A stretch of DNA of 64,000 nt from Escherichia coli (GTDB taxonomy: Bacteria; Pseudomonadota; Gammaproteobacteria; Enterobacterales; Enterobacteriaceae), in NCBI RefSeq assembly GCF_003790525.1, contig NZ_CP033635.1, one strand, 5' to 3'. The notes below the pieces were generated by a model. The model was not told the DNA's origin. It was given only the letters and a program-made list of their open reading frames with translations, and ran no database searches. Shown here piece by piece: positions 25,211 to 39,473 of the stretch; positions within the stretch are counted from its first letter, which is position 1; each line of letters begins with the position of its first letter. The position numbers and the translations under genes are program-made.

Positions 25211-26065
25211 TTAAATAGAGACTGCGGGTTGCAGACTGACTTTAATGTCAGCTGGTGTCGCGTAATAAGGCGCGGAGGTAATAAAAAGGCGAATGCCGCA
25301 GTCGAGGTAATTTTTGAGTGTTGTCAGATTAATTCCGCCGGTCAGAGCCAGCGTGCAGTGAGGAGCCAGCGACGGTGCTATTTGCGCAATTTCAGTTGCC
25401 TGTTGCGGATTAAATTTGTCGAGCTGAAGTACGTCTGGTTGCGCGCGTAACGCGGCGATTGCCTCTTTCGGCGTGTCGGCTTCAACAACTATTTTCTTCT
25501 CGGGTGCGTGGCGACGTAACTGATTGATTGCGCCTGACCAGTCCTGATTGTCATGAAGAAAATGACGGTGGTTGGCAAACAATAATATGGTTTCCGCACA
25601 TCCGGCACGATGAATCAGTCCTCCGGCAGCCAGAATTGCCTGCGAGGCCAGTAAGCGGGTGCCCGGAATTGCTTTTCGGGTGCAGGCGATATTGCCATCA
25701 GGGTAACGTTCACGAAGTAACGCCAGCATTTGAGCGAGATAATCAGAAACACCGCAACTCCACTCCAGCACATTCTGGACTGCCTTCCATCCCTGATGAA
25801 GTGCTGCGGCATTACCTTGCGCACGGATTAGCCGCTGACCCGCGTTCGCTTGTGAACCGTCGCTGACCGCGTTATCAATAGTTAATCCCAGCGTAGTTAA
25901 CATCTTACACGCGACAGAAATTCCGCTGACGCAGCCGCCCTGACGGTGAAAAAACTCTATATAGCCATGCTGGTGTCCAATATTTAATGCTCGCGTGGTC
26001 AGGTCACCGCCCTGGATATCTTCCAGAAGTAACGCATCGATTTGTGCCTGAGAAAGGAAAATCAT
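25211..26065 (-). CDS. ModD-like protein (quinolinate/nicotinate-nucleotide phosphoribosyltransferase family homolog)
   Basis: 284-aa ORF with type II PRTase-like sequence; family assignment from memory of ModD/QPRTase features. Confidence 0.6.
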   Translation of the reverse strand: MIFLSQAQIDALLLEDIQGGDLTTRALNIGHQHGYIEFFHRQGGCVSGISVACKMLTTLGLTIDNAVSDGSQANAGQRLIRAQGNAAALHQGWKAVQNVLEWSCGVSDYLAQMLALLRERYPDGNIACTRKAIPGTRLLASQAILAAGGLIHRAGCAETILLFANHRHFLHDNQDWSGAINQLRRHAPEKKIVVEADTPKEAIAALRAQPDVLQLDKFNPQQATEIAQIAPSLAPHCTLALTGGINLTTLKNYLDCGIRLFITSAPYYATPADIKVSLQPAVSI

Positions 26066-26874
26066 CGCAGTGCCTCTTGCGGTACGCTATCCCACCAGAT
26101 GAGCGCCCAGTCGCGGCTGGCAGGGGCGAGGGCACGAGCATCTTGTTGTTGATACCAGTGATATAACCGCTCACGCTCATCGTCGTTAAGCGCGCCAAGA
26201 CTCCAGCTGACGTTCTGCTCAAAACGTTCCCAGGTGCTGTTATCCTGTTGGCAATTTTGTCCACGGATAAAATCAACGTGGGCATAAATTCCCATCTGAT
26301 ACAGGACGTTGAGCGCAAATATATAGTTGGGTAATTCGATCACTTCCCGACCAGCCGCCCGCTGAATGGCTGGAGAGACGAACGAGGTGCTGACCAGATG
26401 AGTCGTATAGACGCGAAGCCGTGCCTGATTATTCAGTTTGCTCATTGCCTGGCGCATATCAGCCACCAGAGTGGAGCGGGAAGCCACGGCAATATCGCAG
26501 CGTGGCAGGTCACTCCAGTCCTCTTCCCAGGCGCGCTGGATCCAGTGGACATTGTCTGCCTTTAGCGCGGCGGCGCGACGGGCGGCAACGTTCAGCATCC
26601 CCTGACTGTAATCAACGCCATAAATCGTCGTGAGTTTGTCAGCCAGCGCCAGCGATACGGTACCCGGTCCGCAGCCCATATCGAATAAGGTTTGTGCGCC
26701 TTGCAGATCAATTTTAGCGGTCAGTTGTTGCAGGTAGCTGTCCGTAGGCGAGGCGCAATTTTCCGCCATTTTTTCCGCCCGTTGATCCCAGTGATCCGGC
26801 GTTTTTTCTGTGCGATGGGCCAGCCTGAGTTGCTGAAGGTAAAGGTCTGCAAAATCAATATCATCAATGAGCAT
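26062..26874 (-). CDS. Class I SAM-dependent methyltransferase
   Basis: 270-aa ORF with motif I FDMGCGPGTVS; stop overlaps the ModD-like start. Confidence 0.7.
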   Translation of the reverse strand: MLIDDIDFADLYLQQLRLAHRTEKTPDHWDQRAEKMAENCASPTDSYLQQLTAKIDLQGAQTLFDMGCGPGTVSLALADKLTTIYGVDYSQGMLNVAARRAAALKADNVHWIQRAWEEDWSDLPRCDIAVASRSTLVADMRQAMSKLNNQARLRVYTTHLVSTSFVSPAIQRAAGREVIELPNYIFALNVLYQMGIYAHVDFIRGQNCQQDNSTWERFEQNVSWSLGALNDDERERLYHWYQQQDARALAPASRDWALIWWDSVPQEALR

Positions 26875-26883
26875 GATTTTTCC

Positions 26884-27642
26884 TTAGTGCTTAATTGCAG
26901 AGAGGTGATGGTGAATCTGGTCGGCAGAAACCCGGTACAGGGCAGCCAGTTTTTTCGTTGTTAACTGTTCGGTCGGTAAGCCTTGTGTTACACGTCCATC
27001 TGGCTCTACCTGGATAATGCTGTCGGCAATGGCGTTGGCATGGAGCGGATGATGAGTCGACATTAACATTGTCATGCCGTTATTTTTGAGCTGCGCCAGC
27101 GTGTCCAGTAGTTGGATCTGATGACCGAAATCGAGGCTGGAGGCAGGCTCATCCAGTAATAACAAGCGCGGTTGCTGGACGAGTGCACGGGCGATTAAAG
27201 CCAGCTGACGTTCACCGCCGCTAAGCGTATTCCAGCGTCGTGTCGCCAGATGCAAAATGCCCAGCTTTTCCAGTTGCTCCGTTGCTTTCAGGCGTTCTTG
27301 CTTACCGGGAACGGAAAAAGCGCCTATGGTGGGGGCCAGGCCCATCAACACCATATCCAGCACACTAAAAGCAAAAATGCCGTCGTGCGCCTGCGGCACC
27401 CAGGCAATAGCCTGCGCGCGCTGGCGATGGCTGAGTGTCTGCACAGGGAGGCTATCCAGTAAGATCTCGCCTTTTAATAACGGTATAACGCCAAGAATGG
27501 AGCGCATGAGTGTGGTTTTGCCGCAACCATTGGCTCCTAACAGACAACAAATTGTTCCTTGCGACAGGGTGAAGGACACGTCGCGTAGCACCGGATGGCG
27601 GGAGTAACCCAGAGACGCATGACGGACGGCAAGCAAAGTCAC
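26884..27642 (-). CDS. ABC transporter ATP-binding protein (iron-chelate/FecE-BtuD type)
   Basis: Walker A GANGCGKTT, signature LSGGERQ, Walker B LLLDEP; start set at GTG (GGAGG RBS) overlapping the permease stop. Confidence 0.85.
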   Translation of the reverse strand: MTLLAVRHASLGYSRHPVLRDVSFTLSQGTICCLLGANGCGKTTLMRSILGVIPLLKGEILLDSLPVQTLSHRQRAQAIAWVPQAHDGIFAFSVLDMVLMGLAPTIGAFSVPGKQERLKATEQLEKLGILHLATRRWNTLSGGERQLALIARALVQQPRLLLLDEPASSLDFGHQIQLLDTLAQLKNNGMTMLMSTHHPLHANAIADSIIQVEPDGRVTQGLPTEQLTTKKLAALYRVSADQIHHHLSAIKH

Positions 27643-28619
27643 TGGCGACCTCCGCGTAACAACAAAAACAGGAAAAACGGTGCGCCAACAAAAGCGGTCA
27701 GAATGCCAAGTGGGATTTCTGTTGTTCCAATGCTGCGTGCCAGCGTATCGGTAAGCAGGAGCAGAATCGCGCCAGTACACATTGCCATGGGCAACAGCTG
27801 CTGATGGTTATGACCGGTCAACAAGCGGGCAATGTGCGGAACGACCAGGCCGACCCAACCAATTATGCCCGCTATTGCTACCGTGCTGGCGGTGATGAGT
27901 GTGGCGCAGACAATCAATCCAAAGCGCAGACGTGTCACGTTCAGTCCCAGCGAACGGGCTTCGTCGTCGGAAAGTGTGAGTAAATTCATGCGCCAGCGGA
28001 GAAAAAACAGGGGCAAGGAGCCTATGAGAATGATCGGTGCAGCATAGCAGAGATCGCGTAAGGTCACGGTGGACAGCCCCCCCAGCAACCAGAAGGTAAT
28101 TGACGGTAACTGGGTGTAAGGATCGGCCAGCGTTTTTATTAGCGATATCCCCGCTCCGCACAACGTGCCTAACGCAATACCTACCAGCACCAGGGTTAAG
28201 ATCGGATCGTGGCGGGTCACCCGACGCGTAATCAACCAGACGCCCGCGACCACCATCAGCCCGCCGCAAAATGCGTACAGCTGGATGTAAACAATGGATA
28301 ATCCCCACAGGATTGCCGCGCAGGCACCAAGTCCGGCACCGGCGGAGACGCCTAAAATATCCGGTGACACTAAGGGATTACGGAACATTCCCTGATAGGT
28401 GGTTCCAGCCCCTGCCAGCGCCGCGCCCAGAAACAGCGCAGCAAGAATACGCGGCACGCGGATTTGCCAGAAGACAATTTGTTCCTGCACAGGAACATTT
28501 TCTTGACGAAGAATGAGCGCCAGCAGTTGCTGCATATCGAGATGATAAGCCCCACTTACGGCGGCAAAAGTGATACTGATAGCTGCCAGCAGCAAAATAC
28601 ATCCGTTTACGGTTCTCAT
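27639..28619 (-). CDS. ABC transporter permease (FecCD/BtuC family)
   Basis: 326-aa polytopic membrane protein; start overlaps the binding-protein stop. Confidence 0.85.
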   Translation of the reverse strand: MRTVNGCILLLAAISITFAAVSGAYHLDMQQLLALILRQENVPVQEQIVFWQIRVPRILAALFLGAALAGAGTTYQGMFRNPLVSPDILGVSAGAGLGACAAILWGLSIVYIQLYAFCGGLMVVAGVWLITRRVTRHDPILTLVLVGIALGTLCGAGISLIKTLADPYTQLPSITFWLLGGLSTVTLRDLCYAAPIILIGSLPLFFLRWRMNLLTLSDDEARSLGLNVTRLRFGLIVCATLITASTVAIAGIIGWVGLVVPHIARLLTGHNHQQLLPMAMCTGAILLLLTDTLARSIGTTEIPLGILTAFVGAPFFLFLLLRGGRQ

Positions 28620-29641
28620 TAGCTCGCCACCAATTTTTGATAGTCGGCGTCACTGAGTGAACAATGCCAGAACAGTTGGGCGTAATGCTGCATGTCACTT
28701 TTAAACTGGCGATTGATGGCGGGATCCAGCCAGGCGTGAAGTCTGCGTAATCCCAGAAGACGGTTGATTCCCGGCGGGGCATCCAGCCAGCCAAAGGGCA
28801 GGCCACTTAAAAATAAGATGCGTTGTTCCGCAACCGCTTTCACGCCCTGCCAGAGAGGATCACGACGAATAAAATCTGCAGTAACGGCCTCCTGAACCAG
28901 AATAATATCCGGCTGCCAGCGCAGGAGATTTTCCATGGAAACCTGTGTCAGACCGTGGCGATCGGCTATTTGCGCGACGTTGTGCAAACCTAATAATTCC
29001 GCCGCCTCGGTATGCAACGAACCCTGTAAGCCCGTTTCCAGCCCTCGAGGACCGCGCGCAGCATAAAAGCTGAGGTTAGCGGCGGGTGAGGTGGCGAATG
29101 CCTGAGCTTCACCAACGAAGCGGCTGGCGAGATTGGCTTGTTCTGCGGCGCGGTGCTCTTCGCCTAACGTTTTGCCAAGCGTTGTTAACTGTTCTGCTGA
29201 TTGTTCCAGTTTCCCGTTAAGCAATAACCAGGGTATTTGTGTCTGTTCGCTAACCTGCCGTGCCTGGGAGATCCAGGTTTCATCCGTATTGCCGCAATCA
29301 ACGACCAAATCGGGATGTAACGCCATAAGCCCTTCCAGCGAGAGTGTGCTGGCGCGCCCGGCGAGTCGTCCCAGCCTGGGGAACTGGCGAATGTGCTCTG
29401 GCAATGGAATTAATGCCTGACGGGCAAAATCAAAAGAGGAAAAACCGACCATTTTTTCTGGCGCGACAGCCAGCAATAGTAAATCGGCGGGCGCGCCTGC
29501 GCTGACGATGCGTGTAATGTTTTGGGCTTCGGGAAGCGTCAGTGAGGACCAGAATTTGACTGATTGTGCAAAGGACGGCAGATGATGCAGGAACAATGTC
29601 GACGCAAGAATCTGTGTAAACCTCCGTCTGGTTAGTGACAT
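28619..29641 (-). CDS. Periplasmic substrate-binding protein (TroA/BtuF/FhuD-like) with Tat-like signal peptide
   Basis: Start set at internal ATG with RBS-like cagga; N-terminus MSLTRRRFTQILASTLFLHHLPSFAQ. Confidence 0.7.
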   Translation of the reverse strand: MSLTRRRFTQILASTLFLHHLPSFAQSVKFWSSLTLPEAQNITRIVSAGAPADLLLLAVAPEKMVGFSSFDFARQALIPLPEHIRQFPRLGRLAGRASTLSLEGLMALHPDLVVDCGNTDETWISQARQVSEQTQIPWLLLNGKLEQSAEQLTTLGKTLGEEHRAAEQANLASRFVGEAQAFATSPAANLSFYAARGPRGLETGLQGSLHTEAAELLGLHNVAQIADRHGLTQVSMENLLRWQPDIILVQEAVTADFIRRDPLWQGVKAVAEQRILFLSGLPFGWLDAPPGINRLLGLRRLHAWLDPAINRQFKSDMQHYAQLFWHCSLSDADYQKLVAS

Positions 29642-29970
29642 AAGTAATATCCTGATAATTAAAACCGCTATATACTTACACATATAGCGAAAAAGATCAT
29701 GTTTGATGTCAAAATTTGTCTAAAGAGACAGAATGATTTGCTTGTTTCTTAAATAACACTTTGTTCCACAAGAAAATTGTCAGGGAGAATGGGGAGTGGG
29801 GGAAAATATAAATAGAGGTGTAATGATTAACAAGTTGATAAAATAAAATTAAAATCTTCTCTAATAAAAGAAAATAAAGGCATAGACCGTAGAAAGAGTG
29901 GTATTTCGTGGTGAAGAAAGAGCAATGCCAATTTTATGCATGTAATGGCATTGCTCGATATACAGTAAAG

Positions 29971-35129: not shown

Positions 35130-35356
35130 TATTTTGCTCCAGCAATTACGGTAGGGCATGGATGATGTTCAACGACACGGCGACCACTGACTTCCGATGA
35201 ATCCATTGTGCATCAGGCAAGGGAAAAGAAAATTAGCCCAAATTATGTTTCATAGTGAAACATATTCTTTAATGAATGTTCCATATTGAAACTTTTACGT
35301 GTATTAATACTTAAAATTGCGAGCCGGAACACCTTTTGTCATAAGGGATGCGGGAT

Positions 35357-37276
35357 ATGAGTGGCGCTTTTAACAACGATGGTCGGGACATATCTCCCTT
35401 AATTGCAACCTCCTGGGAGCGATGCATTAAGCTGATGAAACGGGAGACATGGAACGTACCACACCAGGCCCAGGGCGTGACATTTGCTTCTATTTATCGG
35501 CGTAAGAAAGCGATGCTGACGCTCGGGCAGGCTGCGCTGGAAGATGCCTGGGAATATATGGCACCGCGAGAGTGTGCGTTGCTTATCCTCGATGAAACCG
35601 CCTGCATTCTCAGCCGTAATGGCGATCCGCAAACCTTGCAGCAGCTAAGTGCACTGGGATTCAATGACGGCACGTATTGCGCCGAGGGAATTATTGGTAC
35701 TTGTGCGCTATCATTAGCGGCTATCTCTGGTCAGGCCGTGAAAACGATGGCCGATCAACATTTCAAACAGGCACTCTGGAACTGGGCCTTTTGTGCAACG
35801 CCGTTGTTTGACAGCAAGGGCCGATTGACGGGAACAATAGCGCTGGCGTGTCCGGTTGAACAAACTACCGCAGCTGATTTGCCGTTGACGTTGGCAATCG
35901 CACGCGAGGTCGGAAATTTACTGCTGACGGACAGTTTGCTCGCTGAAACTAACCGTCATTTAAATCAACTTAATGCCCTGTTAGAAAGTATGGATGATGG
36001 CGTGATTAGCTGGGACGAGCAGGGTAATTTGCAATTTATCAATGCCCAGGCGGCGCGGGTCTTGCGCCTTGACGCGACGGCAAGTCAGGGAAGGGCGATC
36101 ACTGAACTCTTAACGTTACCCGCCGTATTGCAACAAGCAATAAAACAGGCACATCCGCTCAAACACGTAGAAGCAACCTTTGAAAGTCAGCACCAGTTTA
36201 TTGATGCGGTGATAACCCTTAAACCGATAATAGAAACGCAGGGAACCAGCTTTATTTTGTTGCTCCATCCTGTGGAACAGATGCGGCAGTTAATGACCAG
36301 TCAATTAGGAAAAGTCAGCCATACTTTCGCTCATATGCCACAGGACGATCCGCAAACCCGCCGCTTGATTCATTTTGGTCGCCAGGCGGCGCGCAGTAGC
36401 CTTCCTGTCCTGCTTTGTGGAGAAGAGGGCGTGGGCAAGGCACTGCTAAGTCAGGCAATTCATAATGAAAGTGAGCGTGCAGCGGGGCCTTATATCGCCG
36501 TCAATTGTGAGTTATATGGTGATGCGGCGCTGGCGGAAGAATTTATTGGCGGCGATCGCACGGACAATGAAAATGGTCGTCTGAGTCGGCTGGAACTGGC
36601 GCACGGCGGCACGCTGTTTCTTGAAAAGATTGAATATCTGGCGGTGGAGTTACAGTCTGCTTTGCTTCAGGTTATCAAGCAGGGGGTTATCACGCGACTG
36701 GATGCGCGGCGTTTAATACCCATTGATGTCAAAGTGATTGCCACAACGACCGCGGACCTCGCAATGCTGGTGGAACAAAATCGTTTTAGTCGCCAGCTGT
36801 ATTACGCGCTGCATGCATTTGAAATTACCATCCCGCCACTGCGTATGCGGCGTGGCAGCATTCCGGCGCTGGTGAATAACAAATTACGCAGCCTTGAAAA
36901 ACGCTTCTCTACGCGGCTGAAAATTGATGACGATGCCCTCGCTCGCCTGGTTTCTTGTGCATGGCCAGGCAACGATTTTGAACTTTACAGCGTCATCGAG
37001 AATCTTGCTCTGAGTAGTGATAACGGGCGCATTCGCGTCAGTGATTTACCTGAACATCTGTTTACCGAGCAGGCGACAGATGATGTCAGCGCCACTCGCC
37101 TTTCCACCAGTCTGTCATTTGCGGAAGTTGAAAAAGAGGCAATTATTAACGCAGCCCAGGTCACAGGCGGTCGCATTCAGGAAATGTCGGCTTTACTTGG
37201 AATCGGCCGCACTACGCTGTGGCGGAAAATGAAGCAACATGGCATTGATGCAGGGCAGTTTAAGCGCCGTGGATAG
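35357..37276 (+). CDS. dhaR: Transcriptional activator DhaR (GAF-PAS-AAA+ enhancer-binding protein)
   Basis: 639-aa ORF from MSGAFNNDGRDISPL; AAA+ and C-terminal HTH regions. Confidence 0.9.
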   Translation: MSGAFNNDGRDISPLIATSWERCIKLMKRETWNVPHQAQGVTFASIYRRKKAMLTLGQAALEDAWEYMAPRECALLILDETACILSRNGDPQTLQQLSALGFNDGTYCAEGIIGTCALSLAAISGQAVKTMADQHFKQALWNWAFCATPLFDSKGRLTGTIALACPVEQTTAADLPLTLAIAREVGNLLLTDSLLAETNRHLNQLNALLESMDDGVISWDEQGNLQFINAQAARVLRLDATASQGRAITELLTLPAVLQQAIKQAHPLKHVEATFESQHQFIDAVITLKPIIETQGTSFILLLHPVEQMRQLMTSQLGKVSHTFAHMPQDDPQTRRLIHFGRQAARSSLPVLLCGEEGVGKALLSQAIHNESERAAGPYIAVNCELYGDAALAEEFIGGDRTDNENGRLSRLELAHGGTLFLEKIEYLAVELQSALLQVIKQGVITRLDARRLIPIDVKVIATTTADLAMLVEQNRFSRQLYYALHAFEITIPPLRMRRGSIPALVNNKLRSLEKRFSTRLKIDDDALARLVSCAWPGNDFELYSVIENLALSSDNGRIRVSDLPEHLFTEQATDDVSATRLSTSLSFAEVEKEAIINAAQVTGGRIQEMSALLGIGRTTLWRKMKQHGIDAGQFKRRG

Positions 37277-37312
37277 CGGGAGAGTATGTACTTTCCCGCT
37301 ATGAATTGCTAA

Positions 37313-37489
37313 TTAATAGCCACCATGACTGCCGTGATTTGGTCCACCATTTGAAGGTGGCATTGCCTTATCGGAGGGCGCAGGACCACGAGGGCCATCG
37401 CTGTGGCGGTGATGATGGTGGGGAACACAAGCACTCAACAGGCTTGCAAAGACAATTGCTAACAGGCTGAAGGTAAATGTTTTTTTCAT
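37313..37489 (-). CDS. Hypothetical 58-aa lipoprotein with His-rich mature region
   Basis: MKKTFTFSLLAIVFASLLSAC lipoprotein signal (lipobox LSAC) followed by VPHHHHRHSDGPRGPAPSDKAMPPSNGGPNHGSHGGY; weak RBS. Confidence 0.4.
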   Translation of the reverse strand: MKKTFTFSLLAIVFASLLSACVPHHHHRHSDGPRGPAPSDKAMPPSNGGPNHGSHGGY

Positions 37490-37603
37490 GACAAACTCTT
37501 GAACGGTTAATGCACTGTGATTGTTATCACATAAAAGCTGCATTGTTAATATTGTCAGGAGTCTGATTATGAGTTTTGGTAACTCAGAATTGAAAGAAGA
37601 CGC

Positions 37604-37639
37604 GTAGCAGGCGTAAAAAAGCCATTACGTGCAACTCAC
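37604..37639 (-). terminator. Rho-independent terminator downstream of ychF
   Basis: 8-bp stem agccatta/taatggct, followed on the minus strand by a T-run. Confidence 0.6.
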
Positions 37640-37680
37640 ATAATGGCTCGTTATTAACCGCCAGAGTAGTATTAGCGGAA

Positions 37681-38772
37681 TTAGACGTTGAACAGGAAGT
37701 TCATTACATCGCCATCTTTAACGATGTAATCTTTGCCTTCTGCACGCATTTTGCCTGCTTCTTTCGCGCCTTGTTCACCTTTGTAAGTGATGAAATCTTC
37801 AAACGAGATGGTTTGTGCACGGATAAAGCCTTTTTCAAAATCAGTATGGATTTTGCCAGCGGCCTGCGGCGCGGTTGCACCAACCGGAATGGTCCATGCA
37901 CGTACTTCTTTCACCCCAGCGGTGAAGTAAGTTTGCAGGTTCAGCAGCTTATAACCGGCACGGATCACACGGTTCAGGCCCGGCTCTTCCAGCCCAAGCT
38001 CCTGCATAAACTCGTCACGTTCTTCGTCGTCCAGTTCGGCAATGTCTGCTTCAACAGCAGCACAAACCGGAACCACAACAGAACCTTCTTTCGCCGCGAT
38101 TTCACGCACCTGGTCAAGATACGGGTTGTTTTCAAAACCGTCTTCGTTGACGTTGGCGATGTACATTGTTGGTTTCAGCGTCAGGAAGCTCAGGTAACGA
38201 ATAGCCGCTTTCTCTTCAGCGCTTAAATCCAGCGCGCGCAGCATACCTGCGTTTTCCAGCTGGGGCAGGCATTTTTCCAGGACCGCCAGCTCAGCTTTCG
38301 CGTCTTTATCGCCACCTTTGGCTTTCTTCTGTACGCGATGAATCGCACGTTCACAGGTGTCGAGATCCGCCAGCGCCAGTTCGGTGTTGATAACTTCAAT
38401 ATCATCCGCCGGGTTAACTTTGCCGGAAACGTGAATGATGTTGTCATTTTCAAAGCAGCGAACAACGTGACCGATCGCTTCGGTTTCACGGATGTTGGTC
38501 AGGAACTGGTTACCCAGACCTTCGCCTTTCGATGCGCCTTTTACCAGACCGGCGATATCGACAAATTCCATGGTCGTGGGAAGCGTACGCTGCGGTTTTA
38601 CGATTTCAGCCAGTTGATCCAGGCGAGGGTCAGGCATTGGTACGACGCCTGTGTTCGGCTCAATGGTACAGAATGGAAAGTTGGCCGCTTCAATACCGGC
38701 TTTGGTCAGCGCGTTGAACAGGGTAGATTTCCCGACGTTGGGCAAACCGACGATACCGCATTTGAATCCCAT
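37681..38772 (-). CDS. ychF: Ribosome-binding ATPase YchF (Obg-family)
   Basis: 363-aa ORF with G1 motif GLPNVGKST. Confidence 0.95.
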
Positions 38773-38888
38773 GATTTAAATCACCTTAATATCTTAATAA
38801 TCAACCTGTTATTGCTAACAGATTGCAGAAATGGAAATAACTTTGCCTATTATACACGGCACTCGGCAAAAATGCCGCAGACAACGAC

Positions 38889-39473
38889 TTATTGCGCTTT
38901 AAAGGCGTGCAATCGGTTCGTTGCTTTGGTCAAGCCATCTGTAAACCACATTTCAGTACAACGTGCCGCTTCGTCGATGGCTTCATCAATTAACTTCTGT
39001 TCACTAACAGGCGGTTTGCCTAACACAAAACCGACAACTTTATTTTTATCGCCTGGATGACCAATTCCGATGCGTAAACGGTGAAAGTTAGGGTTATTAC
39101 CCAATTTACTGATGATGTCTTTCAGTCCATTGTGACCACCATGGCCACCGCCCAACTTAAATTTGGCGACGCCAGGAGGCAGATCCAGTTCGTCGTGGGC
39201 CACCAGAATTTCGTCCGGATTAATACGGAAAAAACTGGCCATCGCCGCAACGGCTTTGCCGCTGAGATTCATAAATGTAGTCGGGACTAACAGGCGGACA
39301 TCTTCGCCTCCAAGGGTGACTCGCGAAGTATAACCAAAGAATTTAGCCTCTTCGCGCAGCGGAGCGCGCAATCGCTCTGCCAGTAAGTCAACGAACCAGG
39401 CACCAGCATTATGTCGCGTTGCGGCGTATTCAGCGCCGGGGTTCGCCAGGCCGACAATCAATTTAATCGTCAC
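38889..39473 (-). CDS. pth: Peptidyl-tRNA hydrolase
   Basis: 194-aa [27 protein letters not shown]... Confidence 0.95.

Follow-up and report, generated by a model that had tools for sequence, protein, structure and literature searches.

The dhaR-ychF junction and its small gene

The junction between the genes dhaR and ychF was analyzed in a stretch of chromosomal Escherichia coli DNA of 64,000 nt (contig NZ_CP033635.1 of assembly GCF_003790525.1), referred to as the window throughout, together with a small minus-strand gene that lies in the gap between them. dhaR is encoded on the plus strand at 35348-37276 with its TAG stop codon at 37274-37276, and ychF on the minus strand at 37681-38772 with its stop codon at 37681-37683. 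Both genes appear in the list of open reading frames (ORFs) of the window and in the Prokaryotic Genome Annotation Pipeline (PGAP) annotation of a strain with an identical junction. Strain 2016C-3878 is 100% identical to the window across the junction and shares 99% identity with it over 49.7 kb. RefSeq places the start of dhaR at about 35357.

The gap extends from 37277 to 37680 (404 bp) and does not contain ycgV. In TOP10, a K-12 strain, the genes are ordered dhaR, ycgV (2,868 bp, within a segment of 3.7 kb), and ychF. An earlier note, made from the letters of the window alone, had stated this K-12 order and described the two genes as only about 400 bp apart here with ycgV missing; both statements agree with the annotation and with the alignment. 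Similarity between the window and K-12 ends at about 37270-37274, a few bases before the end of dhaR, and restarts at about 37679, at the ychF stop codon, and no similarity to the K-12 insert was found in between. The small gene occupies 37313-37489 on the minus strand and is documented by the ORF list, by annotation, and by conservation. Its 58 codons translate to MKKTFTFSLLAIVFASLLSACVPHHHHRHSDGPRGPAPSDKAMPPSNGGPNHGSHGGY (58 amino acids). The coordinates assigned to this ORF in the earlier note hold, and PGAP annotates the same ORF in the strain with the identical junction as hypothetical protein WP_169780884.1.

The coding evidence comes from a comparison of eight sequences from four species. 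In the small gene, third codon positions had a nucleotide diversity of 0.118 and the first two positions one of 0.022, a pattern resembling that of ychF (0.117 and 0.000) and dhaR (0.207 and 0.016). Third positions accounted for 14 of the 23 variable sites (binomial p = 0.006), and 13 codons varied synonymously only, while amino-acid changes were confined to 8 codons and were mostly singletons. The ratio of nonsynonymous to synonymous divergence (dN/dS) ranged from 0.03 to 0.2 among divergent pairs, with dS reaching 0.47, and the sole length change was an in-frame insertion of 6 nt. The ORF on the opposite strand is disfavoured, since in its frame these variable sites are second codon positions. 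A Shine-Dalgarno-like AAGAG (37496-37500, minus strand) stands 6 nt before the ATG at 37489 and was invariant in all eight sequences. Some annotations extend the protein to 76 amino acids; this form was rejected as it would bury the signal peptide and as its upstream in-frame ATG is ATA in E. marmotae, which supports the start at 37489. A coding sequence was annotated in 58 of 59 sampled records carrying the small-gene allele, and the main intact variants each occurred on more than 1,000 contigs.

Judged by this variation, the ORF is very probably a real, translated gene, and its substitution pattern is that of purifying selection. The gene is also found at the same junction in other Escherichia, as described below; a lack of conservation, which the earlier note had named as a possible refutation, was not observed. 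The contrary reading, in which the ORF is untranslated and its conservation is due to a regulatory or RNA element (a CRP site, a hairpin, or a small RNA) or to a short divergence time, draws on the 80 bp directly upstream. This region (37490-37569, minus strand) is the putative site of the small gene's promoter and 5' leader and, although non-coding, shows the strongest conservation in the gap: its diversity was 0.029, lower than that of the small gene itself, compared to 0.10-0.12 in the neighbouring spacers and third codon positions, and it holds a palindrome that is a strong candidate for a protein-binding site. Against this stand the three-base periodicity of the variation in the annotated frame, a dN/dS well below 1 at a dS of up to 0.47, and the single indel being in frame. 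An RNA element also fares poorly, as a scan of 36000-39000 against Rfam at E ≤ 1 returned zero matches, the leader RNA folded no better than shuffled sequence (z = -0.74), and any plus-strand RNA would run through the spacer at 37570-37612, where the gap varies most (diversity 0.096). A purely untranslated element is thus given only a very small probability.

A predicted lipoprotein with a histidine-rich tail

The signal peptide and lipobox, read from the sequence, are encoded at 37427-37489 on the minus strand. Residues 1-20 consist of MKK and a hydrophobic core, and Cys21 is encoded at 37427-37429. This N-terminal architecture, MKK followed by TFTFSLLAIVFASL and an L-S-A-C21 lipobox, was invariant in 10 variants. 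Under the PROSITE rule PS51257, lipoproteins have a charged N-terminus, a hydrophobic core, and the motif [LVI][ASTVI][GAS]C with the cysteine located within residues 15-35; residues 1-21 fit this rule. The E. marmotae copy is labelled 'Lipoprotein' in UniRef. The residues at +2 and +3 after Cys21 were Val-Pro in all variants. In Lol sorting, an aspartate at +2 is the avoidance signal, and since the residue here is valine and not aspartate, sorting to the outer membrane would be expected. The small protein is therefore likely, though predicted from its sequence, to be a lipoprotein and a substrate of signal peptidase II.

The mature peptide comprises 38 residues, among them 7 histidines, 7 prolines, and 7 glycines. 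A histidine cluster, HHHHRH (amino acids 24-29; 37403-37420, minus strand), begins three residues past the lipidated cysteine. All seven histidines were invariant among the variants, His52 being kept through a synonymous change between CAC and CAT, while R28 was replaced by histidine in two E. coli variants. The proline- and glycine-rich stretch MPPSNGGPNHGS was likewise invariant. AlphaFold2 placed a helix at residues 3-20 only and left the remainder without secondary structure at predicted local distance difference test (pLDDT) scores of 53-61 on a shallow alignment, so that the mature part is predicted to be unstructured.

Database comparisons returned little beyond the family itself. A word-based protein search and a HMMER profile search recovered only the family's own members, apart from one match (P0027) that was rejected: it is the translation of a tandem repeat, in which 'TFTFSLL' is matched by chance fifteen times. 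Pfam DUF6769 was set aside at an independent E-value of 0.03, since only 24 of the 130 positions in the profile were matched, all of them by the signal peptide, and so was LptM (NCBIfam NF047847), whose score of 13.8 bits (E = 0.045) is below the cut-off of 27.7 and comes from residues 1-21 alone. Among solved structures, the matches to HHHHRHSDGPRGP (37403-37420) were exclusively N-terminal leaders of recombinant proteins that carry a His-tag and protease site. This resemblance of a natural peptide to a His-tag leader is a coincidence, and vector contamination is ruled out, since 1,297 complete genomes and other species carry the gene.

Binding of divalent metals by the mature peptide, a role in metal binding having been suggested in the earlier note, was considered from composition and is put forward tentatively, as possible rather than probable. 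Clusters of this kind typically bind metal, and the seven invariant histidines in 38 residues, four of them consecutive, are the strongest compositional feature of the peptide. A second reading takes the lipoprotein as real and its histidines as serving something other than metal, the tail being an accessory or tether for an outer-membrane machine, as LptM is for LptD/E, or a peptide responsive to pH or stress, as are OsmB and the periplasmic Asr, which is rich in histidine and lysine. The evidence for the gene and for its lipoprotein nature fits this reading equally, and the tail, predicted to be unstructured, resembles those of known small accessory lipoproteins. The stretch MPPSNGGPNHGS is as strongly conserved as the histidine cluster, which fits a partner-binding motif. 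In the upstream region, moreover, the sole operator-like element is of the CRP type and no metal-regulator operator was recognized by eye; this absence neither supports nor excludes the metal model. The second reading has to contend with the histidine content itself and with a similarity to LptM that stops at the signal peptide and lies far below the cut-off. It is also regarded as possible, and also falls short of probable.

Comparison with known proteins provided partial likenesses. LptM (YifL), a small outer-membrane lipoprotein with a role in maturation of the LPS translocon and the only weak NCBIfam match to the small protein, is alike in being a prolipoprotein of about 60 residues with a lipobox and a short, proline-rich, unstructured mature part that ends in tyrosine. 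It differs in lacking a histidine cluster and in being widespread in Enterobacterales, whereas the small gene was found only in Escherichia and is missing from most E. coli. OsmB, the entericidins EcnA and EcnB, and Lpp are similar in size, lipobox, envelope location, and their single-gene loci with own promoters, but none showed sequence similarity to the small protein in any search. They are glycine-rich or helical and regulated by sigma-S, osmolarity, or EnvZ, whereas the small protein is rich in histidine and proline and the only operator recognizable at its gene is of the CRP type. Short, unstructured stretches with histidine runs, often flanked by glycine, serine, or aspartate, also occur at the N-terminus of ZinT, in the histidine loop of ZnuA, in the C-terminal tail of SlyD, and in Hpn of Helicobacter pylori. 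ZinT and ZnuA are periplasmic. However, these segments are either cytoplasmic or part of a folded protein. Not one of them is a peptide below 40 residues with a lipid anchor, and none is homologous to the small protein. YcgV, finally, is likewise an envelope protein and has its gene in the slot of the small gene, bounded by dhaR and the ychF terminator, but with 955 amino acids and the Pfam domains Pertactin and Autotransporter it is unrelated to the small lipoprotein in both sequence and size.

Distribution and history of the junction

Among 5,426 complete E. coli genomes, the small-gene allele, represented by a gap sequence of 411 bp, occurred in 1,297 and a probe for the ycgV beta-barrel in 3,945. 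About 184 genomes carried neither, one of them HH97 with a degraded ycgV. The presence/absence polymorphism that the earlier note had proposed for this junction is thereby confirmed. Gap sequences at least 99% identical to that of the window were found in 773 complete genomes, and carriers of the small gene included the B2 strains ATCC 25922, F11, O127:H6 EPEC, PMV-1, and APEC O2:K1:H4. That phylogroups F, G, and B2 lack ycgV has been published (PMC6896753). The polymorphism of ycgV at this junction is thus already known, and the small gene is uncharacterized. The comparison across genomes suggested in the earlier note yielded at least six junction states: the small gene, ycgV, a degraded ycgV, a minimal gap of about 95-105 bp, a variant in E. 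albertii, and the small gene with an additional island of 40 kb.

Beyond E. coli, species representatives of GTDB were scanned with the C-terminus of DhaR, which retrieved six Escherichia loci. E. whittamii and Escherichia sp. E1V33 carry the small ORF at the same junction with an amino-acid identity of 91-93%, and in E. marmotae the small gene was likewise found between ychF and dhaR. In two other Escherichia representatives the gap measures only about 95-105 bp, and E. albertii has kept only the first 12 nt of the module, TAGCGGGAGAGT. None of the six representatives retrieved carries ycgV at the junction. The phage records searched gave no match. Five plasmid records of 150-540 kb did match, all non-mobilizable, and these may be pieces of chromosome.

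Two further loci from this survey are recorded as observations. In E. albertii NBRC 107761 (L018:8001-8333), dhaR was detectable over its last 111 codons only, with TAGCGGGAGAGT following its stop codon, and the dha regulator thus appears to be truncated in this strain. In Citrobacter amalonaticus (L019:8632-10467), the gap holds two other ORFs, so that the junction varies across genera as well; by eye, we take the ORF of 236 amino acids to be similar to DeoC-type aldolases and that of 321 amino acids to be similar to GntR-type regulators.

Relative to the species with a minimal gap, the module extends over about 37274-37610, and the part that differs from ycgV alleles over about 37270-37575. 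Three other Escherichia species carry the small gene at this site and no representative was retrieved with ycgV at the junction, and for this reason the small gene is probably ancestral and ycgV its replacement in the lineage leading to most E. coli. It is rated no higher given the small number of species sampled and the possibility of recombination between them. Under this history, some 300 bp comprising hairpin, gene, and promoter would have been replaced by the 3.7-kb ycgV autotransporter cassette in about 73% of E. coli genomes.

The published view would instead have ycgV as the original occupant, deleted in the ancestor of F, G, and B2, with the small ORF as a by-product or as a later arrival by recombination from another Escherichia. 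Recombination between Escherichia species is known, and ycgV does decay at the junction, as the degraded alleles attest. Speaking for the replacement by ycgV are the presence of the small gene at the exact junction in E. marmotae, E. whittamii, and E1V33 and a third-position divergence (0.118) that matches the 0.117 of the flanking ychF. E. albertii, moreover, retains the left end of the module, and neither allele holds a remnant of the other: no trace of ycgV was found in the small-gene allele and none of the small gene in ycgV alleles, and a tblastn search for small-gene remnants in K-12, HH97, E. albertii, and minimal-gap alleles returned nothing significant. In addition, the approximately 100 nt beside ychF that are common to both alleles are only about 79% identical (78-79%) compared to 96-98% for the flanking genes, which suggests an old or foreign origin of the ycgV cassette. 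The closest YcgV outside E. coli, that of Citrobacter farmeri with 83% identity, sits elsewhere in its genome in an unrelated context by a porin gene and dcm/vsr genes. An original ycgV lost from F, G, and B2 is accordingly considered unlikely.

Several observations were made on the ycgV alleles and on the ychF side of the junction. In HH97 (L005:3989-5130), the degraded ycgV is annotated as two pseudogene fragments. In K-12 (L003:5235-6002), there are extra insertions downstream of ychF, and the terminator stem and its U-tract look weakened. Some small-gene strains carry an island of 39,974 bp at the 3' end of ychF (E. coli KN13-4, L046:4549-44535), bounded by 13-bp direct repeats, GTTCAACGTCTAA, that correspond to the last 13 nt of ychF (window 37681-37693). 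It encodes a tyrosine integrase beside ychF, a NACHT-domain protein, two DEAD/DEAH helicases, an AAA ATPase, and insertion sequences, and on account of this gene content it looks like a defence island. Its interior (L046:6000-17884) holds intergenic elements of 21-24 nt in 3-6 copies, e.g., TCCGCTTCGTGCCAGGAGCGG. With this island integrated at ychF, the junction qualifies as a hotspot beyond the ycgV polymorphism as well. Elsewhere in the window, a cluster of six ORFs lies between treA and ymgE (23215-29683, minus strand), where K-12 presumably holds only ycgY. According to a closely related annotated genome, it encodes an iron ABC transporter (binding protein, permease, and ATPase), an S-adenosylmethionine (SAM) methyltransferase, ModD, and a TonB-dependent receptor.

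Non-coding elements and the junction as a proposed module

The upstream region contains a perfect CRP-type core palindrome, TGTGATTGTTATCACA (TGTGA-N6-TCACA), at 37516-37531, with its centre lying 34.5 nt ahead of the ATG. No second match occurs in the 64-kb window, against a chance expectation of 0.06, and the palindrome was invariant across the species compared. A consensus scan placed a sigma-70-like promoter at 37520-37549 on the minus strand (TTAACA, a spacer of 18 nt, and AACAAT), from which the small gene may be transcribed on its own with a leader of about 24 nt. The palindrome overlaps the predicted -10 hexamer, so that cAMP-CRP, if bound, would repress. Repression of the small gene by cAMP-CRP is accordingly no more than a best guess from this geometry, and a rather doubtful one. 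Sites for Fur, Zur, and FNR were compared by eye against their consensus and rejected, since half-sites and spacing are of the CRP type instead. A 12-codon mini-ORF, MSFGNSELKEDA, on the plus strand at 37569-37607 is preceded by AGGAG and open in all species; it was rejected as a gene because it falls in the least conserved stretch and its changes are mostly non-synonymous, and it is probably not a gene.

Between the convergent dhaR and small gene, a hairpin at 37273-37302 spans the dhaR stop codon with a 13-bp stem (AUAGCGGGAGAGU and ACUUUCCCGCUAU) and a loop of 4 nt. The earlier note had placed a hairpin without a U-tract just after dhaR. Both the hairpin and the missing U-tract were recovered, but the coordinates it gave were off by about 3 nt, and the stem of 7 bp and loop of 12 nt that it described had to be revised. 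The 58-nt fold reached -23.4 kcal/mol on the plus strand (z = -5.4), which none of 200 shuffles equalled, and -21.0 kcal/mol on the minus strand (z = -4.8). As no U-tract follows on either strand, it does not qualify as an intrinsic terminator. The hairpin is partly conserved in four species, without true compensatory changes. Its variable stem position forms a G.U pair on the plus-strand RNA compared to an A.C mismatch on the minus strand, which suggests that the hairpin would act at the 3' end of the dhaR transcript.

On the other side of the gap, folding identified an intrinsic terminator of ychF at 37615-37649 on the minus strand, with a 13-bp stem, a 5-nt loop, and six U. The 96-nt stretch around it folded at -28.4 kcal/mol (z = -4.3), and all Escherichia species examined had kept the terminator, even where the small gene is missing. 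As ychF has its own terminator, the small gene would not be co-transcribed with it.

Taken together, the gap is best explained as a self-contained one-gene module older than E. coli as a species. In this explanation, the precursor would leave the cytoplasm via Sec, receive its lipid at Cys21, and be processed by signal peptidase II, after which the Lol system would deliver the lipoprotein to the outer membrane, into its inner leaflet. The tail of 37 residues that follows, unstructured and rich in histidine, proline, and glycine, would hang in the periplasm, where the invariant C-V-P-HHHH-R-H and the two distal histidines may bind divalent transition metals (Ni, Zn, Cu, or Co). The peptide could then serve as a small membrane-tethered metal buffer or as a tether responsive to metal or pH. 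The explanation as a whole is put forward with confidence a little short of an even chance. A bolder version, in which the peptide is an Escherichia-specific, outer-membrane-anchored periplasmic metal buffer or metallochaperone under catabolite control via CRP and its retention instead of the YcgV adhesin in B2 and related lineages is an envelope trait that defines them, is considered improbable.

Several results weigh against this explanation. The metal-regulator operator missing from the upstream region has already been described. The sole promoter match is weak (9 of 12 positions) and no more frequent than in shuffled sequence. Activation by CRP was examined for class I and class II arrangements, with the site centred near -41.5 or -61.5, on either strand and discarded, as the spacing does not fit: at -41.5, transcription would start at about 37482, inside the ORF, while the codons of the signal peptide look translated. 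The small protein is short and of low complexity, and Pfam and NCBIfam gave no significant match, only sub-threshold matches on the signal peptide. Homologs of the peptide, which the earlier note had proposed to search for, were found within Escherichia, but a HMMER profile search of 1.84 billion representative proteins found no relative outside the genus. The six loci of the species survey included neither E. fergusonii nor the E. coli reference. Frameshifted versions of the gene occur in public assemblies, in clusters of 1-3 sequences on at most two contigs each. The allele of the window itself differs from the commonest E. coli form by G40D, P42A, and R57G with zero synonymous changes, and these three private replacements may point to a lineage in which selection is relaxed or altered. 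Finally, a literature search with strings from the peptide found no paper that mentions it.

The junction separates major lineages of E. coli, with the small lipoprotein gene in B2 and its relatives, which include most extraintestinal pathogens, and the YcgV adhesin in most others. Surveys of small proteins based on K-12 could never have seen the small lipoprotein. The outgroup data also alter the published account, as ycgV was apparently gained by replacement and not simply lost in F, G, and B2. Should it bind metal or partner an outer-membrane machine, the peptide would count as an envelope component specific to its lineage, and if the reading as a metal buffer under CRP control were true, it would represent a trait affecting metal homeostasis or host colonization in extraintestinal pathogenic E. 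coli. Current understanding is not overturned by these results; they add one well-supported, uncharacterized, genus-restricted small gene and a clearer history of a polymorphic site.

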